Source: a virus (lineage: Duplodnaviria > Caudoviricetes). From it: a stretch of 64,000 nt of DNA. Both the position numbers and the translations under genes were made by a program. The first letter of the stretch is position 1; each line of letters starts with the position of its first letter. The notes under the pieces were generated by a model. That model had not been told where the DNA came from and made no database searches. It was given only the letters and a program-made list of their open reading frames with translations. Shown here piece by piece: positions 25,073-53,168 of the stretch. The DNA lies in IMG/VR virus record IMGVR_UViG_3300044701_003213, positions 1,508-65,507 of that record; one strand, written 5' to 3'.

Positions 25073-26383
25073 ATGGCTCTTCCCGATTCTAATAATAAAT
25101 CGACTGGTAATATAGTTTCTTTCAAAGTATATTCTAATACTGGAAAATCTTCCGAGATTAAGGGGTTAGCACCGGAAATAAAGTATTATGAAAATTTACT
25201 ATCAAATTCCATTACATTTACTGCTGTAGTTGCTGATACTGGTGGATTGGACCCAGAAAATAAAAAACCAATGCCTGGTATACTTGATGGTCTTCCAATT
25301 AGAGGTGGAGAAAAAACTGATCTGATTATTGAAGATGCATATAAAAATAAACTATCTTTTATTGGTGATAAGTCATTTTATGTTAATAGAATAAAAGCTG
25401 CTGATCCTGGAACACAGAAAGACTTATACTTTCTAGATTTTTGTTCTTTAGAATTTTTAAAAAATGAGCAAACTAGAATAATAAAAAGATATGATATAAA
25501 AATATCTGAAGCAGTAAAAAAAATATTAACAGATCCACCACCATTTGGATTGGGTACTAAGAAAGAAACTGTGATAGATGAGACTGGTGTTCCCTATAAT
25601 TTTATAGGAAACCAATGGAAACCATTTCACGTTTGCACTTGGTTAGCTTCTAGATCTGCTCCAACTAAAAGTATAAATCAAGCAGCAGGATATTTTTTCT
25701 ATGAAACCTATGATGGGTTTCAATTTAGATCAATTGATTTATTGATGGAACAAGAACCGACTAAAAAATATTTGTATACAAATAGCACTCAAACAAAACC
25801 TGGATTTGAACCAATACAAGACATGTATATTGAGAAAGACATGGACTTGCAGCAAAAATTGATTCTTGGTACATATGCTAACAGAACATTGTATTTTGAT
25901 GCATTCGCCTTTGAATGGGTTTCTAGACCATATGATATAAGTGAACAGCAAGGTGGTCTAAGTTTAGCTGGTGCTGACTTAGATTATGTTGCTGAGCAAT
26001 TTAGACAAACACCAACTAGATTTATGACTAGAGTGTTGGATAATGGATGGCTTCCTGTTGGAAAAAAAGCAGAAGAGCAATTATCAACATGGAAAGGTCA
26101 ACCTAAACAACCTGTTTTTGATGCACCGAAATTAATGTCTCAAACTATTATGAGATATAATCAATTATATTCGGTAAAAACTAATATAACTATTAGGGGA
26201 GACTTTACTTTGAGAGCGGGACAAACAGTATACTGTGAATTCCCAGATCTTCAGGATGATATTGCGAGACGCCCCAACCAACAAACTAGCGGAAAATATA
26301 TGATAGCTAGTTTATGTCATAGAATCACACCAAAAGATTGTCTAACTAGTTTAACTCTTGTTAGAGATTCCTATTCTAAGTAA
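25073..26383 (+). CDS. Baseplate hub protein (gp27-like)
   Basis: YYENL, LPIRGGE, GYFFYET.DGFQFRSI, SGKYMIASLCH..LTLVRDS. Confidence 0.65.
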   Translation: MALPDSNNKSTGNIVSFKVYSNTGKSSEIKGLAPEIKYYENLLSNSITFTAVVADTGGLDPENKKPMPGILDGLPIRGGEKTDLIIEDAYKNKLSFIGDKSFYVNRIKAADPGTQKDLYFLDFCSLEFLKNEQTRIIKRYDIKISEAVKKILTDPPPFGLGTKKETVIDETGVPYNFIGNQWKPFHVCTWLASRSAPTKSINQAAGYFFYETYDGFQFRSIDLLMEQEPTKKYLYTNSTQTKPGFEPIQDMYIEKDMDLQQKLILGTYANRTLYFDAFAFEWVSRPYDISEQQGGLSLAGADLDYVAEQFRQTPTRFMTRVLDNGWLPVGKKAEEQLSTWKGQPKQPVFDAPKLMSQTIMRYNQLYSVKTNITIRGDFTLRAGQTVYCEFPDLQDDIARRPNQQTSGKYMIASLCHRITPKDCLTSLTLVRDSYSK

Positions 26384-34923: not shown

Positions 34924-37900
34924 ATGGGTCTTAGTCGCTTAGATAATTTTCTAAAAAATACAAAAGGGGAGATACTCTATGTTGATCCTTCTAGCTTAGA
35001 CTCAACAGATAGTATTGAGAATCAAGGAAACTCTCTCGCAAGACCCTTCAAAACTATCCAAAGAGCTTTAGTTGAAGCAGCTAGATTTTCATACCAAGTT
35101 GGTAGAGAAAATGATAGATTTGGAAAAACTACTATCCTTCTCTATCCAGGAGAACATATTGTAGATAATAGACCTGGATGGATACCAACAGGAGATGGTA
35201 ACTATTATACTAGGTCTGGTAATTTTACGAATGATTTGCCGCCATTTGATCTAACTACAAATTTTGATCTACTAGCTGATAATAATAGTCTTTATAAACT
35301 CAATAGTATTCATGGTGGTGTTATAGTACCTAGAGGTACTTCTATCGTTGGTCTTGATTTAAGAAAAACAAAGATAAGACCAAGATATGTCCCCAACCCA
35401 GAAAATGATAATATCGAGAGATCTGCGGTCTTTAGATTAACTGGATCCTGCTACATGTGGCAGTTTAGTCTATTTGATGCTGATCCAAATGCAATTTGCT
35501 ATAAGGATTATACAAATAATACTTTTGTTCCAAACTTTTCTCATCATAAATTAACTTGCTTTGAATATGCCGATGGTGTAAATCCAGTCAATATTAATGA
35601 TGACTTTTTAGTATGGTTTGATGGTAACAAAACAGACTTAGATTGCTATTATAATAAGATTGGTGCAGTTTATGGAACGAGCAGCGGTAGACCTATTGAA
35701 CCTGAAACTGTAAATAATCCACTAGATATTGAAGCAAAAGTTGATGAGTATAGAATTGTAGGATCTAGAGGTGCAGAAGTGGGTATCTCTAGCATTAGAG
35801 CTGGAGATGGTGTTATTTCATCAAATACAATCACGGTAACACTAAATGAACCATTAGATGGATTGGATGTTGATACTCCTATTCAAATCCAAGGTATTAC
35901 TGTTAATGGATATACCGGACAATTTGTTGTTAGTGAAATAATTAGTGATACCGTAATTGAGTATCAATCTCAAACGGCACCATTAACTCCTTTACCATCC
36001 GTATCTGAAATTGCAGAAGCGAGTCTAAGTATAGTCGCTGATACCGTAACATCAGCATCTCCATATATCTTTAATATTTCTCTACGTTCCGTATATGGAA
36101 TGTGTGGATTACATGCTGATGGAAGCAAAGCTGATGGATTTAAGAGTATTGTTGTAGCACAGTTCACTGGTATTGGTCTTCAAAAAGATAATAAGGCTTT
36201 CGTTAAGTATAACCCAGAGTCTGGATCATATGAAGATTCTTCTAGTATCGCTAATCTATATTCAGATTCTTTATCCAGATACAAACCATCTTATGAGAGT
36301 TATCATGTAAAGGCAAGTAATAATGCTTTCATTCAAATAGTTTCTGTATTTGCTATTGGTTATGGAGTTCATTTCCTCGCAACAAGTGGAGGAGATCTTT
36401 CCATAACAAACTCAAACTCCAACTTTGGAGCAAAATCTTTAGTATCAAAAGGATTTAGAAATAAATCTTTTCCAAAAGATGATGTTGGATATATTACTCA
36501 TATAATTCCACCAAGAGAAACAGAATTTTCTGATATTAGTGTTGAATTTACCTCCATTGATATTCAACAGAGTGTCGGTGTTGGAACTACATCTCATCTT
36601 TATTTGTATAATGAAAAAAATCAAGTCATATCTCCAGAAACAGTAATTGATGGATATAGACTTGGAGCTAAACGAAATGATAGACTGTATGTTGATATAG
36701 AGGTTTCTGGAATATCAACTCAATATCAGGCTAGAATAGTGATGCCTGGTACTGAAACCAGTTATGAAAAGTCATTTACTGTTGCTAAGAAGGTAAATGG
36801 AATATCAAATGAAATAACAGCAAATACTATAACATTTATAGAAAATCATAGTTTTGAAAATGGCGAGACAATAAGAATAGTTAGTGATACTGGTCAAATA
36901 CCAGATGGATTAATTAATGGTCAAGTTTATTATGCAATTACTAGTGGTTTGTCTGCAGATAAGATTCAAATTGCTAAAACATTTAATGATGCATTAATTG
37001 GACAAGAAACGACAATTTATAGCAATGAAACAAGCACTGTACGTGTTATTAGTAGAGTATCCGATAAGAAGTCTGGAGAAATTGGACATCCTATCCAATG
37101 GGATACTTTTAACAATCAGTGGTACGTTAATGTTTCTAGTACTGATAATACAATAACCCCATTACTATCATCGTTATCTGGACAATCTACACCAAGAACA
37201 TATATTCTAAGACAACCAGATACTAGACCATTAACTGATAGAATATACAGATTGCGGTATGTAATACCAAAAGATACTCCGTTTACATCTAGACCCCCTA
37301 CTGAAGGATATGTTATTCAAGAGTCTAGTGATGTGTTCAGTACCCAATCTGAAACTGAAAAATATTATAGTCTTTCCGAAAAAACACTTTCAGATAGTTC
37401 AGAGCTAAGAAACTTTAGATTTATATCAAATGCTACCTGGAGTGCTGGATCAGTTACCTTCACTACAGAACTTCCCCATAATTTGAGTATTGGATCTATT
37501 GTTTATATTGGTAATGTAACAAGTACTCAAAATCCATCTGGAGATGACTATGTTGCATATAATGGAGAATATTATGTTGATTCTATTCCAAATTCAAGGC
37601 AATTTGTAGTAGAGTTGTCGAGTGATCCTGGGACATTTACAAATAATACCTCAGTAAGAAATGAAAATCTACCTTATTTCTATAAGAGTAGATATACTGG
37701 AACATATACGATTTATAGGTCTGAGGAAGTTCAGAGATACGTTAGAGATCAACAAGATGGTGTATATTATTTAATAGTAACAAATACATCGAATACCCCT
37801 ATAGTATCTCCTTTTGAACTTGAGAATTTTGGACAACCAATTCAGAATCTTTATCCACAGATCAATAGAGATAATCCAACAATAGATCCAAAGGCATCTG

Positions 37901-40900
37901 TATCATATGCTCTTCCCGATCCAGTTGGTCAGGTGATAGTAGATGATCCAGAATCTAGTATTACAAAAGAGACTATCAATAAAATCTACTCTGATTTTAA
38001 TGTTGGTATTGCTATTACTAATATTATATCCACACCGTCTTCAGGAATAGCTCATACAATATACACTAGCATTGACCATAACTTAAATAGAATTTCAAAA
38101 CTTTCCATTATTAATCCTGGATTTGGATATGGTAGTGGTTCTAATCAGGTAGTGTACAATGCATCTCTAGTAGGAACATCAAATTCTGTAACTGGAAATA
38201 ATGCAACTGCTGTTATCAGTATTGATGGAACTGGATCACTTACTGGCGTCAAAGTTATGGACGGTGGAGGTGGTTATAATATTGGTGATAGATTATTTGT
38301 TGTTGGCGTTGGAACAACCGTAGGATATACTACAGCAATCGTAGAAGTTTCTAAGACTTATAATAATATTGGTGATACTCTTTATGTTAATAATATAGAT
38401 TCACTATATGATGAGTATAATACTCTATACAGAATTACTGGTATATCAACATTAAGTCAAAGAGTCTTATTTGTCGAATCCTCTAGACAAATAAATGGTA
38501 TCTCTACACTTGGAGTTGGACAAACAGTTGTTAATTCTGCGAAAGCATATATTTTAGGTCCAACTATTGGTATTTCTTCTTTATCATATAACCAAAATAC
38601 TGGTGTTGTTTCCTTCACCACATTGCAAAATCACCCATTCTTACTTGGTGATAAAGTTAGAATTAGCGGTGCTAACTATAGCGGATACAATGATGATTTC
38701 ATTGTTACTAAGTTTGTTAATAACACAAGATTTGAGGTTAATGTTGGTATTGGTACAACTGTTCCAAATGCACTAGGAACAATATATGCATATAAAAATG
38801 GATTTGATTCGCGTGGTGGATTAATTACAAGACAAAATGAAAGTATTTCTGGAAGACAAATTCCAACTTATGATAACCTAAGTACAACTCTTTCTGGTGC
38901 AGTTTCCTCAGCAGACATTGCAAATATCAGTCTCACATCAGTCAATGATCTTGACTTGGAGTTGGGTGATTATTTACAAATTAATGATGAGGTAATGAGA
39001 GTTAGAGAATCTGTTGATGGTAATCCAGTTTCTGTATTCAGAGGAGTTCTTGGATCCAGAAGAAGCACTCACAATGTTGGCGCTGTAGTTAGAAGAATTA
39101 GACCAATACCAGTAGAATTAAGAAGAAACTCTATTATCAGAGCATCTGGTCACACTTTCGAATATCTTGGATATGGTTCTGGAAATTATTCAACTGCTTT
39201 CCCAGAAAGGCAAGATAGACAACTAACTGCCCAAGAAGAACTTCTTTCTCAATCATCTAAAGTTGATGGTGGAGTTGTCGCATTCACTGCGATGAATAGT
39301 AATGGTGATTTCTATATTGGAAATAAAAAATTAAATTCCACAACAGGAAAAGAAGAAGTATTTGATGCTCCAGTTCCAACTGTAACTGGAGAAGATATTA
39401 CATCTCCAGATTCTGTTGGATTTGATGTTCAAAATGTAGCGGAAACAACTGTAAGAAGATCAATAAAAGTTGAAGGTGGAACTGATGGAAACATTATTTC
39501 AGAATTCAATGGTCCAGTTATCTTTAATAACAAGGTAACATCAACTTCAACTAAAGGAATTGAAGCTGAATCTCTGTATCTGCAGGGAGATGTGAAAATT
39601 TCAAGAAAGTATACTACATCAAATACTAAGCCAACTTATGAAGGAAATGCGGGAGACGTAGTTTATAATGCATCTCCTGATAGTGGAGGAACTTTTGGAT
39701 GGGTTTACACTACATCCAATAGATGGGAAGATTTTGGTCTTATTTCTGAAATAGTTCCATTATCTAGAAACCTTGGAATTTCTACTTACGGAGAATATCT
39801 TGGAGTTACAACTAGTTTAAATCTTATTGGACTTGGCGTATCTATTTCTGGTGGAGTAGATGTTAGTAGTGGAATTGCTACATTAACTTTATTCTCAAGT
39901 TCAGTAGAGCCACAATATCTACTTGTTGCTGGAGTATCAACATTCCAGAATGATGTTATAACTAATGATATTGTATTTGTTAATAGAGGAGCTGTAGTTG
40001 CAGGAGTGACTACATTTAATTCCCAAATTAGAGCAAATGCTGGTATTCAAGTTTTCAGTGGAGCATCCATTGACGATTTAAATGTTACTGGGTCAATCAT
40101 TACTACGGAATTAAATACTACTAATTTTACAAATTCTACAGCAAACTTTGCTGGTGATGTATCTGCAGGAAATACATCAAGATCTGCAAACACAGTTATT
40201 CAGTCTCTATCAGGAGATAATAATACAGCAGGTTTTGAAGCATTTGGCGATACACAAGGGACTGGATATCTTTATGTTGGATCACGTTCAACAAGAGGTG
40301 GAGGAGTTTCTTATAATGGAAACCTGTCCCCATCTTTTGCATTAAATGAGGAAGCAGATTCTATTTCATTCTACAGAAGAAATTCTAGTATTAATAGTGT
40401 AGTATTTTCGTATCCATACAACTCCAATGATGTTACTTTTACTGGTAATATTTTTGCAAATGATATTACTATATCAAATGTTGCAGCATCTGGAAACTTA
40501 TCAGTAACTGGTAGTATATCTACTTCCAGAAATATAAATTCTACTGGTATTTCTACACTACCAACTATTGTAACAAATTCAGTTAGTGTTAATAATTCAC
40601 TGAATATTACTGGAACAGTATCCCAGAATGTAGTTTCTGTTGGAGTAGGAACTGTTATTAATTGCTCACTAGGTAATTACTTTACTGCTACTGTTAATTC
40701 TAATACTACATTCTCATTTAGTAATGTTCCTGCTTCTGGTGTATTTGGTGTTACGATTGAAATCACTCATGTATCTGGAAGTATTTCGTGGCCTTCTTCT
40801 GTTAAATTCCCAGAGGATCAAGCTCCCTTGTTAACAGCAGGAAAAACTCATCTATTCATGTTTGTTACCGATAATGGTGGATCCAGATGGAGAGGTGCCG

Positions 40901-40923
40901 CTCTATTTGATTATGTGGATTGA
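34924..40923 (+). CDS. Large virion structural / tail-fibre-like protein (1999 aa)
   Basis: MGLSRLDNFLKN..ILYV..GNSLARPFKTIQRAL start; beta-rich S/T/G/N composition; C-terminal GNYFTATV...WPSSVKFP domain. Confidence 0.8.
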   Translation: MGLSRLDNFLKNTKGEILYVDPSSLDSTDSIENQGNSLARPFKTIQRALVEAARFSYQVGRENDRFGKTTILLYPGEHIVDNRPGWIPTGDGNYYTRSGNFTNDLPPFDLTTNFDLLADNNSLYKLNSIHGGVIVPRGTSIVGLDLRKTKIRPRYVPNPENDNIERSAVFRLTGSCYMWQFSLFDADPNAICYKDYTNNTFVPNFSHHKLTCFEYADGVNPVNINDDFLVWFDGNKTDLDCYYNKIGAVYGTSSGRPIEPETVNNPLDIEAKVDEYRIVGSRGAEVGISSIRAGDGVISSNTITVTLNEPLDGLDVDTPIQIQGITVNGYTGQFVVSEIISDTVIEYQSQTAPLTPLPSVSEIAEASLSIVADTVTSASPYIFNISLRSVYGMCGLHADGSKADGFKSIVVAQFTGIGLQKDNKAFVKYNPESGSYEDSSSIANLYSDSLSRYKPSYESYHVKASNNAFIQIVSVFAIGYGVHFLATSGGDLSITNSNSNFGAKSLVSKGFRNKSFPKDDVGYITHIIPPRETEFSDISVEFTSIDIQQSVGVGTTSHLYLYNEKNQVISPETVIDGYRLGAKRNDRLYVDIEVSGISTQYQARIVMPGTETSYEKSFTVAKKVNGISNEITANTITFIENHSFENGETIRIVSDTGQIPDGLINGQVYYAITSGLSADKIQIAKTFNDALIGQETTIYSNETSTVRVISRVSDKKSGEIGHPIQWDTFNNQWYVNVSSTDNTITPLLSSLSGQSTPRTYILRQPDTRPLTDRIYRLRYVIPKDTPFTSRPPTEGYVIQESSDVFSTQSETEKYYSLSEKTLSDSSELRNFRFISNATWSAGSVTFTTELPHNLSIGSIVYIGNVTSTQNPSGDDYVAYNGEYYVDSIPNSRQFVVELSSDPGTFTNNTSVRNENLPYFYKSRYTGTYTIYRSEEVQRYVRDQQDGVYYLIVTNTSNTPIVSPFELENFGQPIQNLYPQINRDNPTIDPKASVSYALPDPVGQVIVDDPESSITKETINKIYSDFNVGIAITNIISTPSSGIAHTIYTSIDHNLNRISKLSIINPGFGYGSGSNQVVYNASLVGTSNSVTGNNATAVISIDGTGSLTGVKVMDGGGGYNIGDRLFVVGVGTTVGYTTAIVEVSKTYNNIGDTLYVNNIDSLYDEYNTLYRITGISTLSQRVLFVESSRQINGISTLGVGQTVVNSAKAYILGPTIGISSLSYNQNTGVVSFTTLQNHPFLLGDKVRISGANYSGYNDDFIVTKFVNNTRFEVNVGIGTTVPNALGTIYAYKNGFDSRGGLITRQNESISGRQIPTYDNLSTTLSGAVSSADIANISLTSVNDLDLELGDYLQINDEVMRVRESVDGNPVSVFRGVLGSRRSTHNVGAVVRRIRPIPVELRRNSIIRASGHTFEYLGYGSGNYSTAFPERQDRQLTAQEELLSQSSKVDGGVVAFTAMNSNGDFYIGNKKLNSTTGKEEVFDAPVPTVTGEDITSPDSVGFDVQNVAETTVRRSIKVEGGTDGNIISEFNGPVIFNNKVTSTSTKGIEAESLYLQGDVKISRKYTTSNTKPTYEGNAGDVVYNASPDSGGTFGWVYTTSNRWEDFGLISEIVPLSRNLGISTYGEYLGVTTSLNLIGLGVSISGGVDVSSGIATLTLFSSSVEPQYLLVAGVSTFQNDVITNDIVFVNRGAVVAGVTTFNSQIRANAGIQVFSGASIDDLNVTGSIITTELNTTNFTNSTANFAGDVSAGNTSRSANTVIQSLSGDNNTAGFEAFGDTQGTGYLYVGSRSTRGGGVSYNGNLSPSFALNEEADSISFYRRNSSINSVVFSYPYNSNDVTFTGNIFANDITISNVAASGNLSVTGSISTSRNINSTGISTLPTIVTNSVSVNNSLNITGTVSQNVVSVGVGTVINCSLGNYFTATVNSNTTFSFSNVPASGVFGVTIEITHVSGSISWPSSVKFPEDQAPLLTAGKTHLFMFVTDNGGSRWRGAALFDYVD

Positions 40924-41789: not shown

Positions 41790-41959
41790 AAGCATCCAAA
41801 TCAGATCTAATGCATCACAGATTGCAAGCTTGGCTTAGAGAAAACAGATGTAGTGATCTGGAGTATCTTGGCTTGCAAAATGGAGAACATTATTATAGAA
41901 TAGGATCACATAGAGTACCAGTTTCAAATATTGAGGGGTTTGATTTAGCCGATGAGTAA
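41786..41959 (+). CDS. Hypothetical protein (57 aa)
   Basis: ATGA overlap; manual translation MHHRLQAWLREN..DLEYLG. Confidence 0.65.
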   Translation: MKASKSDLMHHRLQAWLRENRCSDLEYLGLQNGEHYYRIGSHRVPVSNIEGFDLADE

Positions 41960-42671
41960 ACATCTTTTTAATAGTAATGCTGAAAAATTTTCAGCACCAA
42001 TACAAGTGGAAACAACATGTCATTTTATGCCCATGTTCAGTGTGCCTCTTCTTCATATTAGGATTAACAATTGGGAAGAAAAAAAACAAGATTTGCTGCA
42101 AATTTATTCATATTCCAAGAAAAATGCAATTCAAATAGGCGGTCCTGGTGATGTAAATACGGATTATCATTATAATTCTAAAAATTGCAATTCATACAGT
42201 CCTGCAATTTATGATATTCTTGAAGAAGAAATTCTCCTAGCAAAAGATGTTCTTTTCAATAAAGATGATTTTGAGCAGAAAAAAGATCCAGGATCTGAAT
42301 ATATGTTAGCTCCAGATGATCTTGATGATATCGATCTTGTAATGGAGAATTCATGGTTTGAAACAAGCACAAAGTTAACTCATCACGAAGTTCATACTCA
42401 TGGTCCTGTTGGATATAGTGTCGTTGTTTATATTCAATATGACGAGAGAGTTCATACACCAACTCAATTTGTGAATCCATATTTGTCCAATTTTATTGGT
42501 AATCCTCAAATTTATTCTCCTGCTCATCTGGTACAAGAAGGATCTATGATCTTATTTCCATCATCAGTTCTACATTACACATCTCCAAACTCTAGTGATG
42601 TTGAAAGAATTGTCCTCTCATTTAATTTTGTAACAAAAACAAAGTCAACTAGGGAGTATGTATTTGTATGA
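41952..42671 (+). CDS. 2OG-Fe(II) oxygenase (TIGR02466-like)
   Basis: HTHG, EGSMILFPSSVLHY, RIVLSFN. Confidence 0.85.
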   Translation: MSKHLFNSNAEKFSAPIQVETTCHFMPMFSVPLLHIRINNWEEKKQDLLQIYSYSKKNAIQIGGPGDVNTDYHYNSKNCNSYSPAIYDILEEEILLAKDVLFNKDDFEQKKDPGSEYMLAPDDLDDIDLVMENSWFETSTKLTHHEVHTHGPVGYSVVVYIQYDERVHTPTQFVNPYLSNFIGNPQIYSPAHLVQEGSMILFPSSVLHYTSPNSSDVERIVLSFNFVTKTKSTREYVFV

Positions 42672-43294
42672 TTCACTTTTTTCATTCTCCTTTTGTATTC
42701 TGGACAAAAGTTCCAAATCACAATCAACTAAAAGAATATCTTTTACCAAAAATTGAGAAAGATTATAGATTGAATGGTAAATCTTACCGAGATGAATCTT
42801 GTTGGGAATGCAACTCAACTTCATCTTTTCACTCCCCAGTTGATGTTGATAAGAGTATCTTAGCATATGAACCTCTTATTGATGCTATCTGGAATTCTTA
42901 CTCTGAATTTATTGATGAATTGATTGATTCGCAAATGTTATGTACTGAGGCGGAAATTGGAAATTATTCTGAATCTAGTCTCAGTAATCTTTGGTATAAT
43001 TATTACAATAAAGGAGAATTTCAAGAAACTCACGATCATAGCAATAAAAATGATTTCTCTGGCATCTATCTCCTTTCAATTCCAGAAGAATATAATACTA
43101 CTGCTTGGTACAATTATAATGCAGCAATTACTCCATTTGAAAATGGTTTATATTTTGGACAAAAAGATGCCCAAGAGCATGGAATTGGTGAGGGACACAT
43201 GCTCATTTTCCCATCAAAATTACTCCATCATGTACCACCCGCTTCTGGGACTAGGATAACTATTTCATATAATTTTAGATCTCCCAATGCCTAA
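42668..43294 (+). CDS. 2OG-Fe(II) oxygenase (TIGR02466-like)
   Basis: QETHDH, FSGIY, EGHMLIFPSKLLHHV, RITISYN. Confidence 0.85.
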   Translation: MIHFFHSPFVFWTKVPNHNQLKEYLLPKIEKDYRLNGKSYRDESCWECNSTSSFHSPVDVDKSILAYEPLIDAIWNSYSEFIDELIDSQMLCTEAEIGNYSESSLSNLWYNYYNKGEFQETHDHSNKNDFSGIYLLSIPEEYNTTAWYNYNAAITPFENGLYFGQKDAQEHGIGEGHMLIFPSKLLHHVPPASGTRITISYNFRSPNA

Positions 43295-45445: not shown

Positions 45446-45654
45446 TGGTTAATAAACTCATAGAATGGTTTTTTTCTCCAACAGAAAAAATGATAGTTGA
45501 GGAAATTGATGTCTATTCAAAATTAATTGAATTAGAAGAAAAATACAATAAATTACTAGATGATGTGAAAATATTGCAGGAAGAAAATATAGAAACAACG
45601 AACATTCTTTACGAAATAGAAAATACACTGGATATGTATCAGAAAAATGATTAA
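45442..45654 (+). CDS. Hypothetical coiled-coil protein
   Basis: LQEENIETTNILYE. Confidence 0.65.
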   Translation: MMVNKLIEWFFSPTEKMIVEEIDVYSKLIELEEKYNKLLDDVKILQEENIETTNILYEIENTLDMYQKND

Positions 45655-46324
45655 TATATTCGAAGTAAATGATCTATCAAACATGATAGAAGAAAGATTT
45701 GGAGATAGTAGAATATTCTATATGGATAATTTTTACAAGTATCCAGATCTAATTCGTGACCATATAATGAATACCAATTGTCCAGTATGGAAACAACAGG
45801 AAGGTAATGGAAATACTCATAATATGAGATATTTTGAGGATAGAAGGCATGAATTATTCTATGATGAATTGAAAGATGTCTTTTGGGATATAGTTGATAT
45901 AATTGGAGATGGAAAAACAGTACCTCTAGATGATACTGAGTTCGTCACTAATATGACTAAATTCTATGATGTTCCATATAATGATTTTGAAAATAATTAT
46001 TGGTGGCCTCACAGAGATGCGGGGTGGAACGGTATAGTATATTTTAATGATTATTCTGATGGTGAATGTGGGACCAACATTTATCAGAGAATGTATAAAG
46101 ATCCAGACTATGATAATATCCCAGAACATTTGAATGCTTGGGTTCCAAAAGAGCATTGGAAAGTTATAGGAAAATTTAAATCAAAATATAATAGGTTCGT
46201 TTGTTTTGAAGGTGATAGATTCCATCATGGAATGAATATAACCGATAAAAGATATTTTGGGACAAAAGAGAGTAATAATTACAGGATTAATCAGGTATTC
46301 TTCTTCAAGGATAAAAACAAATAA
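45647..46324 (+). CDS. 2OG-Fe(II) oxygenase-like protein (DUF6445-like)
   Basis: MDNFYKYPD, PHRD, GTNIY, YNRFV..FHHG, RINQVFF. Confidence 0.75.
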   Translation: MINIFEVNDLSNMIEERFGDSRIFYMDNFYKYPDLIRDHIMNTNCPVWKQQEGNGNTHNMRYFEDRRHELFYDELKDVFWDIVDIIGDGKTVPLDDTEFVTNMTKFYDVPYNDFENNYWWPHRDAGWNGIVYFNDYSDGECGTNIYQRMYKDPDYDNIPEHLNAWVPKEHWKVIGKFKSKYNRFVCFEGDRFHHGMNITDKRYFGTKESNNYRINQVFFFKDKNK

Positions 46325-46328
46325 TATT

Positions 46329-46970
46329 ATGGCCGTTCACAAACACAGAGTAAATCCTTACAGATCCAATATAGAAATATCGGATGTAGAAGCTTTTGAT
46401 ATTTTTCCTACAACAGTGTGGGCAGGAAAAGTTAATGTTGATAATGATGTTATATTAAATGAATGCTATTCTCTTCGAGATAAATATCCTGATGGAGTAA
46501 GAAAATCTAATTTTGGGGGATGGCAAAGTGATGTATATAATCTTGATGAAATTGTAACTGAAGTCGAACTCCCTGCAGTATCTGATCTAGGAACTAAAAT
46601 ATTATTTTTTGCTAATAAACTGTGTGAAGAAGAATTGAATTCACAAAGAATGTTCCAAGAATCTGGAACAGGATTTTGGATTAATATAAATGAACAATTT
46701 TGTTATAATGTACTTCATTCTCACCCAAAGTGTGATTTAATAGCTCTTTATTATGCAAAGATTAATTTTACGCAAGGTAACTTAAATTTGATGAGAAATG
46801 ATGGGTCAGCTCACACTCTTCTTTATGAAAATTTAGATAATGGTAGTTTTTTTAAATTGAATGCTGAACCTGGAGTTGTATATCTATTTCCTGCTCATAT
46901 TCTTCATTATGTTGAACCAAATCTTGTAGATGATACTAGAGTTTCTATCTCTTTTAATATTAGTTTCTAA
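46329..46970 (+). CDS. 2OG-Fe(II) oxygenase (TIGR02466 family)
   Basis: SNFGGWQS, HSHP, LFPAHILHYV, RVSISFN. Confidence 0.88.
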   Translation: MAVHKHRVNPYRSNIEISDVEAFDIFPTTVWAGKVNVDNDVILNECYSLRDKYPDGVRKSNFGGWQSDVYNLDEIVTEVELPAVSDLGTKILFFANKLCEEELNSQRMFQESGTGFWININEQFCYNVLHSHPKCDLIALYYAKINFTQGNLNLMRNDGSAHTLLYENLDNGSFFKLNAEPGVVYLFPAHILHYVEPNLVDDTRVSISFNISF

Positions 46971-47020
46971 TTTAAATACTAAATAGTAAAAGCATAATTG
47001 GAGGATGAAATAAAAATATT

Positions 47021-47533
47021 ATGTCAGTCTTAACAGTAGATGGTATTAATTTTAGCGATGGTACATCTCTAAATTCAAGATACGGAATTATACCTCAAAA
47101 TTCTGTTGTAGTTTTCTATCAAGCGTCTGCTCCAACTGGATGGACTCAATTAACAACTCAAAATAATAAAGCTCTAAGGGTTGTTAGTGGAACTGGTGGA
47201 GGTTCTGGTGGAAGTATTGCCTTTACATCTGCTTTTCCCGGAACATTAAAACCAATCACAGGTATTGTAACGACAACAGGTACTGTTGGAGATACTACAC
47301 TAATAACATCACAACTTCCATCTCACTCTCACGGGGCTGGATCTGAAGTCAACGTTAGACCAGGAGCTCCTAGTGTTACTGGACGTTTAGCAAACACTGA
47401 TGCTCCAAATACTGGACTTACTGGTGGCGGATTACCTCATAATCACCCATTCGTTTCTGGAGACTCTCCTTGGTCAACTACAATTGACTTAAGAGTGCAG
47501 TATATTGATGTAATAATTTGTAGATTTAATTGA
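47021..47533 (+). CDS. Short tail-fibre tip / collar-type protein with HxH motifs
   Basis: FYQASAPTGW..NKALRVV collar motif; TTL..SQLPSHSH, GGGLPHNH; CTAAATA late promoter at 46979. Confidence 0.7.
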   Translation: MSVLTVDGINFSDGTSLNSRYGIIPQNSVVVFYQASAPTGWTQLTTQNNKALRVVSGTGGGSGGSIAFTSAFPGTLKPITGIVTTTGTVGDTTLITSQLPSHSHGAGSEVNVRPGAPSVTGRLANTDAPNTGLTGGGLPHNHPFVSGDSPWSTTIDLRVQYIDVIICRFN

Positions 47534-47558
47534 TAAAAGATTAGGAGGAGGGTAATAA

Positions 47559-49043
47559 ATGGCTATTTTAACAGCAACCAGTATAGTATTTGGGGATAGT
47601 TCCGCAATTAATTCCTTCTATGGAATTATACCTAAAAATACCACTGTGGTTTTTTATCAAGCAAATGCTCCGACTGGTTGGGCTAAAACTACATCTCAAG
47701 ATAATAAAGCTCTTAGGGTTGTTAGTTCTACTGGTGGAGCTACTGGTGGAAATGTACCTTTTACTTCCGCCTTTCCTAGTGTATCAAATGTAAGTATTGC
47801 TGCTACAACAGTTGGTGTTGGTACTGTTGGAGATACTACATTAACTATTAGTCAAATAGCACCTCACGCTCACGGTTCAGGAGGAGCGAATACTGGTATT
47901 GCTGCGGGACCTGCTACTCCTTCTAGGTATCTGGAAAGAACTCCTATACAATATGGTATTAGGGTAGCTTACGCACAGGTTAGAAACTATCAACAACCAC
48001 AAGCTTATAGACAACCTCAAACATATTCACAACCCCAATCATTTAGACAACCACAAGCGTATAGGCAACCAAAAACATATCAACAACCATTAACTTATCA
48101 GCAGCCATCTACTTATCGGCAACCATCAGTATATACAGTTCCTATTGTTAACAGACAACCGACTCAAACTCAACAACCATACAGAACTCCAGTAATTAGA
48201 AACTATCGTCAACCATTTACTTCTCCTGTTAACGCTGGTGTTCCTGTTCAGCAACCGAGATCATATCCATTTACAAGGAATTATCAGTCACCATTTACTT
48301 CTCCTATCAACACTCAATCTACAGTCGTAATTAACCGACAGGCTCCTTTTGGAAACAGAGGTCGAAATGTATTTGGGGAAAGGGATAGAAATAATAATGC
48401 TAGAAGAGGTCGAATTATCCGACCAAATAGGAATAGGGTAGTTCGTAACTATGCTCAACCAAGAAGTTATAGTTTTCCACAACCAAGATCTTATCAACAA
48501 CCAAGAAGAAGCCCTATTAGTAGATCATTGCAGAACAATACTAGAGCAAACGTTCAGCAACCAAGATCTTATCAACAACCAAGAAGAAATCCAATTGCTG
48601 TTGGTTACAGACAACCAAGAACAACACCAGTTGTTGCTAGAAATCCACTAACATATCAGCAACCAAGGAATTTAAGAAGTCCTGCACCTAAAAGGACTCC
48701 TATTGTTAATAGATCACCGATTGTTAACCGAGTAATTGCGAACAAAAGAGTTATTGCAAATACTTATATTCAGGCATCCAAAAGAATCGTTGCTAACAAA
48801 AATGTTCCTCTTGTAAATTACAATCCCGTAAGATATCCACAATTAGTGAATGCTAGATATGCTACAAGAATACTTGTTCCTGGTGGGCAGATAAGAACTG
48901 CAAACACTAATGGTCCAGATACTGGATTAACAGGCGGTGATGGATCTCATAATCACCCATATACTGGCGGACTCATAAGTATTTCTTCCTCAGTAGATTT
49001 AAGAGTTCAATACATAGATGTTATTCTTTGCTATTTGCAATAA
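47559..49043 (+). CDS. Paralogous fibre protein with ~324-aa Arg/Gln/Pro-rich repeat insertion
   Basis: N- and C-termini align with the 170-aa neighbour; insertion lies between PHAH and SHNH; AGGAGG RBS. Confidence 0.8.
   Translation: MAILTATSIVFGDSSAINSFYGIIPKNTTVVFYQANAPTGWAKTTSQDNKALRVVSSTGGATGGNVPFTSAFPSVSNVSIAATTVGVGTVGDTTLTISQIAPHAHGSGGANTGIAAGPATPSRYLERTPIQYGIRVAYAQVRNYQQPQAYRQPQTYSQPQSFRQPQAYRQPKTYQQPLTYQQPSTYRQPSVYTVPIVNRQPTQTQQPYRTPVIRNYRQPFTSPVNAGVPVQQPRSYPFTRNYQSPFTSPINTQSTVVINRQAPFGNRGRNVFGERDRNNNARRGRIIRPNRNRVVRNYAQPRSYSFPQPRSYQQPRRSPISRSLQNNTRANVQQPRSYQQPRRNPIAVGYRQPRTTPVVARNPLTYQQPRNLRSPAPKRTPIVNRSPIVNRVIANKRVIANTYIQASKRIVANKNVPLVNYNPVRYPQLVNARYATRILVPGGQIRTANTNGPDTGLTGGDGSHNHPYTGGLISISSSVDLRVQYIDVILCYLQ
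47982..48850 (+). repeat. Coding hexapeptide repeats (xxYxQP and IVNRxP/ANKRVI)
   Basis: 18-nt periodic caacc repeats; exact 31-nt duplication at 48480-48510 and 48558-48588. Confidence 0.85.
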
Positions 49044-49080
49044 ATACAGTATAATTTACATATTATTAATTTGACTTGTA

Positions 49081-49458
49081 ATGAAAAATAATTATTGTCC
49101 ATTGATTAAAAAAGAATGCATTCAAAATAAATGTGCATGGTATACTCATATTAGAGGTATAAATCCAAATACTGGACAAGAAGTTGATGAATGGAATTGC
49201 ACCATTTCTTGGATTCCAATGCTTTTGATTGAAAATTCACAGCAGCAACGTTCTACTGGAGCAGCTGTTGAATCCTTTAGAAATGAAATGGTAAAAGCAA
49301 ATGAAAGCAATCTAAATATTCTAGAAGCAGCAGCAAACATGTTTTATGGTGCATCTGAGGCAGTTGAAGAAATTAGGTTTTTTGAGGAGTCTCAGCAAAA
49401 TCTAATTGAAAATAATGAAGAAGATCAAAACCTATTAAATCCTGAAGGAGGAAACTAG
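49081..49458 (+). CDS. Cys-rich fibre-associated protein
   Basis: CPL..C....CAW...C...W, then ENSQQQRSTGAAVESFRNEM; ATAAATA upstream. Confidence 0.75.
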   Translation: MKNNYCPLIKKECIQNKCAWYTHIRGINPNTGQEVDEWNCTISWIPMLLIENSQQQRSTGAAVESFRNEMVKANESNLNILEAAANMFYGASEAVEEIRFFEESQQNLIENNEEDQNLLNPEGGN

Positions 49459-49463
49459 TAAAA

Positions 49464-50882
49464 ATGAGAGTTACAATTATTCCTAGTGAAAAGAAAGTAG
49501 TAGTAGATGGTAGACCAATCATATTTGATTCTTGGAATTTTAATGATGGACACATTCATGCTATTCAATGGAATCACGATAAAGGTCATATTGAATTCGT
49601 AACTAGAGATCCTAATCAGGAAATCGAGTCTCTTGATTATATTCAAAAATATTTGGATATCTTTTTCGATGAAATTCCTAAGATCGAACAGATCCGTATG
49701 AAAAGGGAAGAGGAAGAGAGGCAGCGTAAAGAACAAGAGTCTCTCGAACTCCAAAGTGTAGATGAGGAAAAAGAGCAATTAAAGAAAATGGTAGAGCATA
49801 CCATTGAAGAAAATAAAAAAATAAGAGAAGCAAAAAATGCATTAGAAGTGCAAAGAACAAAAGAAATTGTTGAAAGTGAAAATGAAGCGAGACGACTGGA
49901 AATCGAAAAGCAAAGATTAGAAGCAGAAAATAAGAGACTTCAATCAGAACAGGAGATTTCTGCTAGGGAAAAATTCTGGAATGAACATTTCCAAAAACAA
50001 AATGAAGATCTTTTAAAAGCTCATGATGAGATGGGGAAAGTAGCAGAAAAAGTAGATAATACAGTAAAATCTTATTTTGATAAAATTGATGAAAAGAAGA
50101 GTGTAATTGAAGAATCTATCAATGCACAAATCAATCAATTAAAAGAATCTGAGAATATTTTAAACGAAAAAAATAAATTATCTCAAGATGAAATTTCAGC
50201 GCAATATCAAAGAATTAATGAGTTAAATACAAAGTTAGCTGAAGAAAAGGAAATTACATTTACCGATATTAACAAGAGGTATGAAGAGCTTGAGGAAAGA
50301 ACTTCTCAAATTCAAAGACTAAGAGATTTAGCTGAATCAAGTGCTCAATCAATGATTCAACAAAATGAACTTCAATTAGAGCAAATCAAATTGGAAAGAA
50401 AAAAGATTGATGAGATGAAACAAGCTCACGATCAATCAATTGAGATTATGACTCAAACTCTGGAACTTCAGAGATCTGAAATTGAAATTCATAGAAAAGA
50501 ACTTGAAAATAGAGAGAAGGAACTTCAGTCTAAGATTGTTGAAAAAGATGTTGAATATGAAATGAGATCATATGAACAACTTAAGAATCTAGCAATTGAA
50601 AATCTTGTTGAGCAAGAGACACGAAATATTGTTAGAGATGAAGCTCAGAATAGAGCTGCAAAAGCAATTACTAAAATTGCACAATCTGAAGATCCACTAG
50701 ATATCTTTAAGGCAGCTATGATGGATCCTACTATTACTCTAGAGACTTTACCAATAGACAAAATCATTGGATGGTTCTCTAAGATTCAGAAGGCACAAGA
50801 GCTATGTAAGAAGTATAATATTACCTATGAGCAACTTCTTGAGTCTAAAGAAATGAGAGATATGCTAAACTTTACTTTCTAA
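49464..50882 (+). CDS. Putative fibre-assembly protein with long Glu/Lys-rich coiled coil
   Basis: N-terminal RVTIIP..VVVDG..IHAIQW...GHIEF domain, ~330-aa helical segment, small C-terminal domain. Confidence 0.65.
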   Translation: MRVTIIPSEKKVVVDGRPIIFDSWNFNDGHIHAIQWNHDKGHIEFVTRDPNQEIESLDYIQKYLDIFFDEIPKIEQIRMKREEEERQRKEQESLELQSVDEEKEQLKKMVEHTIEENKKIREAKNALEVQRTKEIVESENEARRLEIEKQRLEAENKRLQSEQEISAREKFWNEHFQKQNEDLLKAHDEMGKVAEKVDNTVKSYFDKIDEKKSVIEESINAQINQLKESENILNEKNKLSQDEISAQYQRINELNTKLAEEKEITFTDINKRYEELEERTSQIQRLRDLAESSAQSMIQQNELQLEQIKLERKKIDEMKQAHDQSIEIMTQTLELQRSEIEIHRKELENREKELQSKIVEKDVEYEMRSYEQLKNLAIENLVEQETRNIVRDEAQNRAAKAITKIAQSEDPLDIFKAAMMDPTITLETLPIDKIIGWFSKIQKAQELCKKYNITYEQLLESKEMRDMLNFTF

Positions 50883-50911
50883 TAAATTTTAATAGTTTAT
50901 AATATAAGATA

Positions 50912-52438
50912 ATGAATGATTTCTTACTAGAAAATAACCATATAGTAATTCCTAATTTCATATGCAGTGATAGAGCCAAAGAATTAGCAAGAGAGTTTAA
51001 GTTAGTATCCGAAGAATACAATTTTCCATCTGATAAACAAGCTCTAAACTCTCACAGTTGTTATAATTATCTTCCAGCTCTAGAATTACTATGTGAAAAA
51101 ACATCACATGTTTCTGATATTATTGGAACACCAGTATTGCCTACTTACACCTATGGTAGAATATATAAAAATGATTCTGTATTAGAAAAGCATACTGATA
51201 GACCAGCTTGTGAAATATCAGCAACAGTTCATTTAGATGGAGATCGTCCGTGGTCAATATGGATAGAAACTCCAGAAGGAAATCCAAGATGTGTTAATCT
51301 AAATCCAGGAGACGCAATGATCTACCTTGGATGTGTTGCTCCTCATTGGAGAGATGCATATAGAGGAGAATGGTATGCTCAGTTTTTCACTCATTATGTG
51401 AGAGCATATGGACCATGTTCTGATGTTTACTTTGATAAGTATAAAGTAAGTAATAATGAAGAGTCAGCGATGCTCAAAAAATTATATGAAGAGCAAAGCA
51501 CAAAAAATCTAGCATTAGAAAATAAATTGTTTGCTAGTTCAGATGATGTCCAACAATTCGAGCAACATTCGGACAATTTTGTAAAAAAGGTTTTAAAAAA
51601 TAAAAACATTAAGGAAAAGGAGGTGAACGTGATGAGTCCAGCTATTACTTTTGAGAGTGAGTTAGAAGAACTAGTTAAAAAAATCGCTGGTAGTGTAAAT
51701 AAAGAACCAGATAGTCCTATTGATAATGAGACAAATGAAAAAGCTTTTATCAATTACATTACTGATGAAAGTAAAGAAAATACTTCAGTAACAAAATCAA
51801 TAAAGGATAAATTTATCTACAGAAAATTTGCTGAAGATAATAATGATAATGCATTGATTACTTCAACTACATCAACTACGAAACTATCTGACTATATCGT
51901 AGTAGTCGATGATGTTATTCCATTGGAATTGTGTGATGAAATATTGGATGAATATATTAATACTGATTTGTGGAACAATGCACTGACTGGTGGAGGTCTT
52001 GATAAAGAATCTAGACGTTGTAATGTAATTGGATTATCTGAACCAGAGGTTATCAACCAAAATCCAGATTATAGATCTAAGATAGATTCTGCACTCTATG
52101 AATGTGTGGCTAATGCATTATCAAAATATCAAGCAAAATTCCCATATTTTGATATAGAAATAAATGAAGACAGTGGATATGAATTACTAAGATATAAAAC
52201 TGGAGATTTTTATGTTCAGCATACTGATTCATTTAAACAACAACCAAGAGCAATATCTTGTACAATGTGCCTAAATGATGATTATGGCGGTGGTGAATTT
52301 GGTTTCTTTGATAGAGAGGTTGTTCTTAGACCAAACAAAGGATCTGTAATTATGTTCCCATCAAACTTTATGTATCCCCATGAAGTAATGCCTGTAACTA
52401 GCGGAACTAGATATTCTATTATTACATGGTTAGTTTGA
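50912..52438 (+). CDS. Two-domain 2OG-Fe(II) oxygenase (C-terminal domain prolyl-4-hydroxylase-like)
   Basis: Domain 1: HTDRPACEIS..HWR; domain 2: HTD..LNDDYGGGEF..FPSNFMYPHEV..GTRYSIITW. Confidence 0.88.
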   Translation: MNDFLLENNHIVIPNFICSDRAKELAREFKLVSEEYNFPSDKQALNSHSCYNYLPALELLCEKTSHVSDIIGTPVLPTYTYGRIYKNDSVLEKHTDRPACEISATVHLDGDRPWSIWIETPEGNPRCVNLNPGDAMIYLGCVAPHWRDAYRGEWYAQFFTHYVRAYGPCSDVYFDKYKVSNNEESAMLKKLYEEQSTKNLALENKLFASSDDVQQFEQHSDNFVKKVLKNKNIKEKEVNVMSPAITFESELEELVKKIAGSVNKEPDSPIDNETNEKAFINYITDESKENTSVTKSIKDKFIYRKFAEDNNDNALITSTTSTTKLSDYIVVVDDVIPLELCDEILDEYINTDLWNNALTGGGLDKESRRCNVIGLSEPEVINQNPDYRSKIDSALYECVANALSKYQAKFPYFDIEINEDSGYELLRYKTGDFYVQHTDSFKQQPRAISCTMCLNDDYGGGEFGFFDREVVLRPNKGSVIMFPSNFMYPHEVMPVTSGTRYSIITWLV

Positions 52439-52439
52439 T

Positions 52440-53168
52440 ATGGATTTGGAGCATTCTCATCAGTTTTTTATTGGTTCGTATGATGATTGTTTAACAAAAG
52501 AAGAGTGTGATATTCTAATAGATTTTTTTGAAGGTAGAGGTGATAGGAAACACTTAGGTCTAAATCAATTTGATGAATATAAGCATCTTGGAAGACATGA
52601 TCTTCAAATAAATCTATTAAACTTTAAAGATGATGAGAAAATCCAACCAGTTGTTACTAAACTTCTAGAATCTGTAGATAAGTGTGTAGAAGTCTATAAA
52701 AATGTATTTTTTACATATAATCAAATTTTATATTCTGATATTCTTGATAGACTAACTAACCCAGCAGTAAAAATTCAAAAAACTCCAATACGCGGAGGAT
52801 ATCATGTATGGCATTGTGAAACAACTGATGTTAGTTCTTTAGAAAGATCTCTAGCATGGATTTTATATTTAAATGATATTCCAGAGGGTGAAGGAGAGAC
52901 TGAATTTTTATGGCAAGGTGTAAGAATTCAACCAAAAGTGGGAAGATGTGTTCTATGGCCTGCTCAATTTACTCATGTTCATAGAGGAAATCCTGTATAT
53001 ACAAAAGAGAAGTACATAGCAACTGGATGGATCTGTTATAAAGATGTTATAGAAAATCATGCACATTCTCCATTTATCTATGACCCACAAAGAGACTTTA
53101 CCTGGAAAAAAACAACTGATGAGAGACTAAAGAGAGAGGGTTATAGGAGAAGAACTGAGGATGATTGA
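52440..53168 (+). CDS. 2OG-Fe(II) oxygenase (prolyl-hydroxylase-like)
   Basis: GGYHVWHCE, YLND..GETEF, WPAQFTHVHRGN, KYIATGW. Confidence 0.9.
   Translation: MDLEHSHQFFIGSYDDCLTKEECDILIDFFEGRGDRKHLGLNQFDEYKHLGRHDLQINLLNFKDDEKIQPVVTKLLESVDKCVEVYKNVFFTYNQILYSDILDRLTNPAVKIQKTPIRGGYHVWHCETTDVSSLERSLAWILYLNDIPEGEGETEFLWQGVRIQPKVGRCVLWPAQFTHVHRGNPVYTKEKYIATGWICYKDVIENHAHSPFIYDPQRDFTWKKTTDERLKREGYRRRTEDD

Follow-up and report, generated by a model that had tools for sequence, protein, structure and literature searches.

The window analysed here is a stretch of 64,000 nucleotides (nt) from the IMG/VR virus record IMGVR_UViG_3300044701_003213, a low-GC piece (34.4% GC) of a T4-like cyanomyovirus. Its plus strand carries two adjacent genes coding for related proteins that presumably form the tip of a fibre, and the second of them holds the element under study, a long insert rich in Arg and Pro. 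Gene coreA (47021..47533) encodes a polypeptide of 170 amino acids (aa) with net charge 0, which is the insert-free paralog and consists of the HxH-bearing tip domain only. Gene coreB (47559..49043) encodes P0001, a 494-aa protein of net charge +49 in which the same domain is split by the insert. BLASTP aligns residues 1-108 of P0001 with residues 1-107 of the paralog at 51% identity, and residues 446-491 with residues 122-167 at 61% identity. P0001 is thus the paralog with about 320-337 residues inserted internally. These two alignments agree with an earlier reading of this stretch made without database searches (the sequence-only reading), according to which the 494-aa protein has both termini in common with its 170-aa upstream paralog.

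The N-terminal part of the core domain (aa 1-108, 47559..47882) ends in the first HxH motif, H103-A-H105 (47865-47873). Its C-terminal part (aa 441-494, 48879..49043) holds the second motif, H464-N-H466 (48948-48956), and the two motifs flank the insert as had been described. Between them lie an outbound arm (aa ~118-280, 47910..48398), a segment rich in Arg, Gly and Asn (aa 264-285, 48348..48413) and a return arm (aa ~282-440, 48402..48878), all read from the plus strand. The central segment, FGNRGRNVFGERDRNNNARRGR, is found where it had been quoted; covariation and a pivot at about aa 281 in AlphaFold2 (AF2) models assign the turn to it.

The core domain belongs to a large family of fibre tips. 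The core paralog used as query matches 4047 representative proteins at E<=1e-3; in these the domain either makes up a whole protein of 160-200 aa or occupies the last ~165 residues of a long fibre protein. A core profile built from 46 stand-alone members gives hits in the Protein Data Bank (PDB) to the Photorhabdus virulence cassette (PVC) fibre Pvc13 (9qgo_A, E 8.6e-12) and to gp60 of Pseudomonas phage Pa223 (9nxk_A, E 8.7e-8), both HxH motifs being covered in each case; no gp37 chain is present among the PDB profile matches at E<=1. The PVC paper describes the C-terminal region of the fibre as homologous to the host-binding domains of phage short tail fibres (PMC12546770), and the Pa223 preprint finds residues 124-215 closely similar to the T4 gp37 tip (10.1101/2025.06.11.659172). 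P0001 and its paralog match no Pfam family above gathering score and have no match in NCBIfam, nor in PHROGs beyond one unnamed family. Gp10_C (PF21939) is matched weakly in Pfam by 5 of the 46 core relatives (best E 3e-4). Atlas features lead from the core to tail-fibre clusters, among them a Gp10_C cluster (0.88), and Collar (PF07484) is found on 30% of one cluster. The coreA orthologue of Synechococcus phage S-SCSM1 (ORF244) is annotated 'tail fiber protein (virion protein)'. By these homologies the core is presumably a trimeric receptor-binding tip domain of the HxH-bearing gp12/gp37 type, and P0001 would be a homotrimer like its core homologs 9qgo and 9nxk, whose entries hold three chains each. 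The loop between the HxH motifs measures 0-79 aa in 133 of the 140 top core relatives and is long only in the subfamily of P0001. Other departures from the common form are found in the family: P0120 has four HxH-type motifs, resembling a short multi-metal needle of the gp37 kind, and P0127 and P0234 have three core domains in tandem per chain.

The insert is strongly basic. Residues 109-445 contain 48 Arg and 5 Lys against three acidic residues (E126, E274 and D276), a bias already pointed out by the sequence-only reading. The polycationic tip that it deduced is indeed Arg-rich, but the positive charge runs along the whole insert and not in the tip alone. Pro makes up 13% of the insert, in which Val, Ile, Tyr, Phe and Thr are also abundant. 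Eight [YF]xQP hexads follow one another in the outbound arm (about aa 143-191, 47985-48128) with a strict period of 6 (Pro autocorrelation of 0.42 at lag 6 and 0.53 at lag 12). The return arm has hexads of the IVNR/ANKR type whose columns are regular across aa 382-435 (48702-48863); IVNR occurs at 196, 382 and 388, IANK at 393 and VANK at 411. Both sets of hexads had been recognised before, but the return arm has six [YF]xQP motifs as well (298, 306, 312, 338, 350 and 366). The arms are thus not composed of two clean complementary repeat types, and their description as such was an over-simplification. The 18-nt DNA repeats of the insert have diverged (73-76% matches), hence they do not result from recent slippage. 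The DNA of the outbound PIVNRQP (48140-48162) is 87% identical to that of TPIVNRSP on the return arm (48698-48720), which identifies it as a copy of a return-type hexad located on the outbound arm.

A search of 5.8 billion proteins retrieves about 65 clusters of 411-516 aa whose full-length alignments with P0001 show 30-51% identity. The HxH motif occurs twice and no more in each of P0001-P0066, the two copies being separated in the homologs by 275-379 residues rich in Arg, Pro, Gln and Asn, and H103, H105, H464 and H466 are invariant in the 65 aligned homologs. Mean pairwise identity declines outward, from 0.53 in the core to 0.39 in the proximal arms, 0.29 in the distal arms and 0.33 at the tip. 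Judged from these alignments, the insert is a conserved module and not a chance low-complexity stretch. It is carried by one isolate, S-SCSM1, in ORF245, annotated 'short tail fiber protein'. No description of the insert was found in the papers searched, GenBank giving only this name, and the words 'tail fiber' appear nowhere in the main text of the S-SCSM1 paper (PMC9602691). Longer, fused forms of the insert were looked for and did not turn up, a negative of little weight, and the 8-kb neighbourhood gives no megablast match to phage genomes.

Structure prediction and covariation both indicate that the insert runs out and back. In the AF2 model of the P0001 monomer, strand 122-190 pairs with strand 370-440 at i+j ~561, i and j being the numbers of the facing residues; the predicted local distance difference test (pLDDT) of 10-residue blocks is 59-76 in the first strand and 59-77 in the second. 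The model of P0027, a member of the short class, pairs strands 123-213 and 276-366 (i+j = 489), with block pLDDT of 56-83 on the outbound side and 48-81 on the return side, most blocks being above 67. Its pivot falls on the GG of RRRGGRRRR; the turn of P0001 lies near A281, in DRNNNARRGR. Covariation was computed as mutual information with average product correction (MI-APC) on 91 unique sequences, with an effective number of sequences (Neff) of 47. Of 297 anti-diagonals, 487, 489 and 491 score highest (means 0.102, 0.093 and 0.082), the background being -0.0035 +/- 0.019 and the highest other odd sum reaching 0.0355. Nearly half of the 50 strongest long-range pairs (24) fall within i+j 485-493, versus 4.2% expected by chance. 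The short class alone (N 51) yields the same three top anti-diagonals. With the long class alone as input (N 36, Neff 18; P0001 numbering), the four highest of 446 sums are 562, 564, 560 and 566; the signal extends over the outbound arm from 112 to 271 in all 20-residue bins, those that AF2 leaves unmodelled included.

The strand pairs and the top-ranked anti-diagonals bear out the antiparallel course around a central Arg/Gly/Asn turn that had been put forward from the sequence. Together with the termini shared with the paralog, they describe a chain of gp37-type topology, which leaves a basal domain and returns to it antiparallel. A more precise facing, of the lone outbound IVNRQP (196-201) with LTYQQP (364-369), is only approximate, since residue 196 pairs with 366 when i+j = 562. 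A hairpin organisation of the insert, taken by itself, appears quite probable.

The lengths of the two arms are tightly coupled. With the outbound arm measured from H105 to the tip column and the return arm from the tip column to P441, the lengths in 65 homologs correlate with r 0.955 and slope 0.93, which is the outcome expected under the test that the sequence-only reading had itself named. Typical outbound/return pairs are 138/123, 161/136, 165/146, 175/158 and 192/164. Long and short classes interleave in a tree made from core columns only, implying several independent changes that lengthened or shortened both arms together. P0001 has a 26-aa tandem duplication on the outbound arm (aa 211-226/237-252) and another on the return arm (aa 306-320/332-346). 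Reflection through i+j = 562 brings the duplications of the two arms opposite one another, and each time 11 of the 15 residues overlap. No DNA inverted repeats were found within the coreB gene, which rules out a DNA palindrome as the origin of the mirror symmetry.

The structure that we propose derives from the ordinary members of the family, in which a distal loop of 20-60 residues joins the two HxH motifs. In P0001 a hexad-repeat module of ~320 residues, rich in Arg, Pro, Gln and Asn, would replace this loop. The chain would depart from the core after HxH-1, run out for ~160 residues, turn at the Arg/Asn/Gly segment (pivot at ~aa 281) and return antiparallel to rejoin the core before HxH-2. 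The three hairpins of a trimer could then build a thin polycationic needle of about +147 charge. It would measure some tens of nm, or roughly 40-50 nm at full extension (the 50-55 nm given earlier are an arithmetic figure), and its length would change by paired insertions or duplications on both arms. Such a needle could act as a long cationic probe or adhesin for anionic layers of the host surface, and its folding or masking would probably depend on the acidic proteins p125 and cc472 encoded just downstream. The out-and-back register, the paired change in length, the conservation of the module and the charge-balanced cassette come out of the computations; we infer the trimer, the needle packing, metal at the basal HxH motifs, the virion location and the receptor role. 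An out-and-back hairpin that stands on the fibre-tip core and forms some kind of elongated projection is, in our view, moderately likely; a compact self-standing trimeric needle of six strands is somewhat doubtful.

In T4 gp37 the needle has about 60-70 residues per strand. The C-terminal collar-needle-head structure of this protein is reportedly that of PDB entry 2XGF, due to Bartual and colleagues in 2010. Like gp37, P0001 would be the distal receptor-binding tip of a fibre, most likely trimeric also here, with a chain that runs out from a basal domain and back and with HxH motifs on the axis; the HxH...HxH part of the core profile is the one that matches Pa223 gp60, likened in its preprint to the gp37 tip. 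The folding of gp37 requires gp57A and gp38 (PMC6957217), dedicated chaperones to which the putative partners cc472 and p125 could correspond. The differences concern mainly metal and length. The gp37 needle has seven Fe sites along its length, made by HxH pairs (PMC6957217, PMC11705849), whereas P0001 has only two HxH motifs, both basal, and arms of ~160 residues that consist of Arg/Pro/Gln hexads without His, with about +49 charge per chain. His is absent between the two HxH motifs in 79 of the 91 family members. An extension without His makes no gp37-style iron zipper, and gp37-like Fe sites are possible only at the two basal motifs. Since the metal zipper is missing and the P0001 core has no direct sequence match to gp37, we regard P0001 as a variant of the gp37-type tip and not as a member of it. 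Pvc13 (9qgo) and Pa223 gp60 (9nxk) are closer in sequence, with a detectable core homology and C-terminal fibre domains of the gp12/gp10 type. They differ by a long N-terminal shaft and an HxH-HxH loop of ~40-50 residues, whereas P0001 begins directly with the tip domain and has an HxH-to-HxH interval of 358 residues.

Several observations weigh against the needle. With a Pro every sixth residue, ~48 Arg per chain, no His and few large hydrophobic residues, compact packing is physically questionable. Overall AF2 confidence is low (mean pLDDT of 52.9 for P0001 and 58.5 for P0027; predicted template modelling score, pTM, of 0.20 and 0.18) and residues 195-368 of P0001 are mostly below pLDDT 50. 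AF2 and MI-APC draw on overlapping alignments, hence they are not mutually independent. Foldseek gives no significant match in the PDB (best E 0.14), the best rows, at E 0.14 and above, being pore-forming proteins with long hairpins. In BFVD the S-SCSM1 orthologue is the only match, with a template modelling (TM) score of 0.20 and no superposition on the P0001 model. The arms are measured from a tip column that depends on aligning repetitive sequence with MAFFT; a handful of rows are clearly out of place there (137/135 in P0049 and P0062, 159/116 in P0064, with equal totals), and the independent length changes are few, about 4-5. In GenBank, S-SCSM1 ORF244 bears the note 'virion protein' and ORF245 does not. 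A trimer prediction with three copies of residues 115-445 (score 0.00, partner pLDDT <50) speaks neither for nor against.

The fibre-tip pair is embedded in a cassette (45647-53168, plus strand) with the order p225 - oxy237 - coreA - coreB - p125 - cc472 - oxy508 - oxy242. Directly upstream of coreA, at 45647..46970, p225 (phrog_1644) is followed by oxy237, a 2-oxoglutarate (2OG)-Fe(II) oxygenase (PF13759). Downstream, p125 (49081..49458), always found after coreB, encodes a small protein with four conserved Cys, an acidic tail and net charge -10. The cc472 product (49464..50882, net charge -27) has an N-domain of ~85 aa, a Pro-free helical region of 321 aa rich in Glu, Lys, Gln and Leu, and a C-domain of ~65 aa. 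The oxy508 product (50912..52438) is a 2OG-Fe(II) oxygenase similar to prolyl 4-hydroxylase (P4H), with PF13640 at aa 424-507 and an acidic middle region, and oxy242 (52440..53168) is the second downstream 2OG-Fe(II) oxygenase (PF13640). A survey of 80 viral-contig loci, 80 metagenome loci and S-SCSM1 (L001-L161) provides 48 unique complete cassettes. The gene order coreA - coreB - p125 - cc472 homolog - PF13640 oxygenase is preserved across the surveyed loci; oxy508 is found in cassettes with and without the insert, and p225, oxy237 and oxy242 only in insert-bearing loci. In two insert-free loci (L039 and L051) Pfam shows only a PF13640 oxygenase downstream, and a radical S-adenosylmethionine gene lies upstream in L039. 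Whether or not the insert is present, p125 shows the Cys pattern C-x6-C-x4-C ... C together with the block IENSQQQRSTGAAVESFRNEMVKAN, which hardly varies; Pfam, PHROGs, NCBIfam and PDB yield no match for this protein.

A bolder hypothesis, rather unlikely to hold in all its parts, is a charge-balanced module of three proteins, a new way for a phage to make a long, thin, polycationic fibre tip. The insert of P0001 would be a metal-free β-needle of Arg/Pro hexad repeats with 125-160 residues per strand, which p125 and cc472, the latter with a Tfa-like N-domain, would fold, sheath or mask until host contact, and the constantly flanking P4H-like 2OG oxygenases may hydroxylate the Pro, Arg or Asn of its hexads. 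The role of cc472 and p125 as folding or masking partners of the needle is in itself possible, without being the likelier case.

One rival explanation retains the same hairpin with another support. The three cationic ribbons would have no self-standing packing, and cc472, together with p125 or not, would fold, neutralise or wrap them, the working object being then a hetero-complex, or else a needle that requires chaperone-assisted formation. This explanation draws on the length of the cc472 homologs, which is 431-502 aa in 32 insert-bearing cassettes versus 147-266 aa in 16 insert-free ones. The N-domain of ~85 aa is common to all of them, and the helical region of ~320 residues and the C-domain are found only in insert-bearing loci (12 aligned with insert, 6 without). 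Residues 85-405 of cc472 have no Pro and a single Gly, so the region is expected to be helical and would measure about 48 nm as one helix. Net charges in the insert class range from +28 to +87 for coreB and from -26 to -72 for cc472 (r -0.81); p125, through its acidic tail, also follows coreB (r -0.84). The summed charge of cc472 and p125 offsets that of coreB with r -0.88 and slope -0.97, leaving -4.4 +/- 8.2 for the three proteins. The relation persists in independent contrasts (r -0.62, p 3e-4; L020, L026 and L027, which have identical rows, left out, and a minimum branch length of 0.03), and the control neighbours do not follow coreB charge (oxy237 r 0.22, p225 r -0.01, oxy242 r 0.39). The place of cc472, directly downstream of the fibre-tip genes, is the classical one for a fibre chaperone. 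Its N-domain Atlas model resembles Phage_tail_APC, DUF4376 and 'tail fiber assembly' clusters (TM 0.80-0.83 over 85-88 residues), which we take as a lead only.

The case for sheathed ribbons is countered by several of the same data. The sign test on the contrasts is weak (16 opposite, 11 same), and a single joint origin of the long helical region and the insert, a lineage effect, is possible. The charges in the window do not cancel (+49, -10 and -27). The length match is loose, the long class adding ~29 helical residues and a C-terminal extension versus ~36-40 residues per arm. A strict 'ruler' model, with helix length equal to needle length, was rejected on account of this loose match. Like cc472 and p125, oxy508 becomes more acidic as the charge of coreB rises (r -0.72); its net charge ranges from -16 to -48 and resides mostly in the middle linker. 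The oxygenase may dock on the Arg-rich needle as its substrate, or the correlation may reflect a trend of the whole clade. A chaperone assignment of cc472 finds no sequence support in Pfam, NCBIfam, PHROG or PDB. Its position, the N-domain model and the long Pro-free helical region recall tail fibre chaperones and coiled-coil helpers such as lambda Tfa and its Phage_tail_APC-like relatives, T4 gp57A and T4 fibritin; cc472 differs from them in having no sequence match to the Tfa, Phage_tail_APC, gp57A or fibritin families. To our knowledge, an acidic helix of ~320 residues whose charge tracks the positive charge of its client is not a described feature of these chaperones. We consider the sheathed ribbons rather unlikely.

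Further from the data stands the possibility that the insert is a disordered cationic loop, a polycationic tether with, for instance, non-specific binding to anionic polysaccharides or nucleic acids, the symmetry being only the trace of repeat history. Its composition in Arg, Pro, Gln, Asn and Ser, including the high Pro content, is typical of disorder, the distal part has AF2 pLDDT <50, and no structural match was found. However, disorder gives no reason for two halves equal in length, nor for a register-specific anti-diagonal covariation that shows a two-residue periodicity along the whole insert. It also fits poorly with the abundance of Val, Ile, Tyr, Phe and Thr and with proximal arms conserved at 39% mean pairwise identity, and it appears improbable.

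Hexapeptide-repeat proteins of the left-handed β-helix (LbH) fold are trimers, with the motif [LIV]-G-x2-[STAV]-x, 18-residue turns and i to i+18 contacts. Period-6 aliphatic repeats (IVNRVI ANKRVI ...) superficially recall them, but winding of the insert into a left-handed or triple parallel β-helix is hardly credible, as there is no covariation at parallel offset 18 (among parallel offsets, 6, 4 and 12 lead), the AF2 strands are long and antiparallel in P0001 and P0027, no Pfam hexapeptide match is found, Pro keeps one place in the hexad, and the lengths of the two halves change jointly.

Receptor-binding tips determine which picocyanobacteria a cyanophage infects, and we know of almost nothing structural on the tips of marine T4-like cyanophages. 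The module proposed here, an antiparallel needle with acidic partners, would carry the out-and-back principle of gp37 to a much longer needle without metal, and paired duplications on the two arms would offer a simple route to tune its length. If true, the charge-matched acidic partner would represent a fibre chaperone or sheath of an unusual, client-specific kind. The constant presence of 2OG oxygenases nearby would provide a concrete candidate substrate for a large cyanophage gene family, whose viral roles have not been specifically investigated according to the S-SCSM1 paper (PMC9602691). S-SCSM1, an isolate that carries the module and in which the idea is testable, has a host range that includes Synechococcus and Prochlorococcus (PMC9602691). 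The same source counts 24 2OG-Fe(II) oxygenase genes in this phage and calls the number uncommon (PMC9602691).

Beyond the cassette, the P0001 gene is surrounded by baseplate hub and tail fibre genes. The window encodes a tail protein (25073-26383), a gp5-like baseplate hub (26605-29364) and a 1999-aa tail fibre (34924-40923), whose C-terminus has no relation to the core domain. Among the several 2OG-Fe(II) oxygenase genes within the window, at least five lie <=12 kb from the fibre-tip pair (41952-43294, 46257-46970 and 50912-53168). The open reading frame at 46257-46970 is listed with a TTG start that overlaps the preceding gene by 68 nt, and an internal ATG (MAVHKHRV...) is the likelier start. 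In some insert-free phages (L076, L077 and L080) the core paralogs in tandem number three rather than two (208, 199 and 202 aa), and these triple paralogs precede the same p125 - cc - oxygenase genes.

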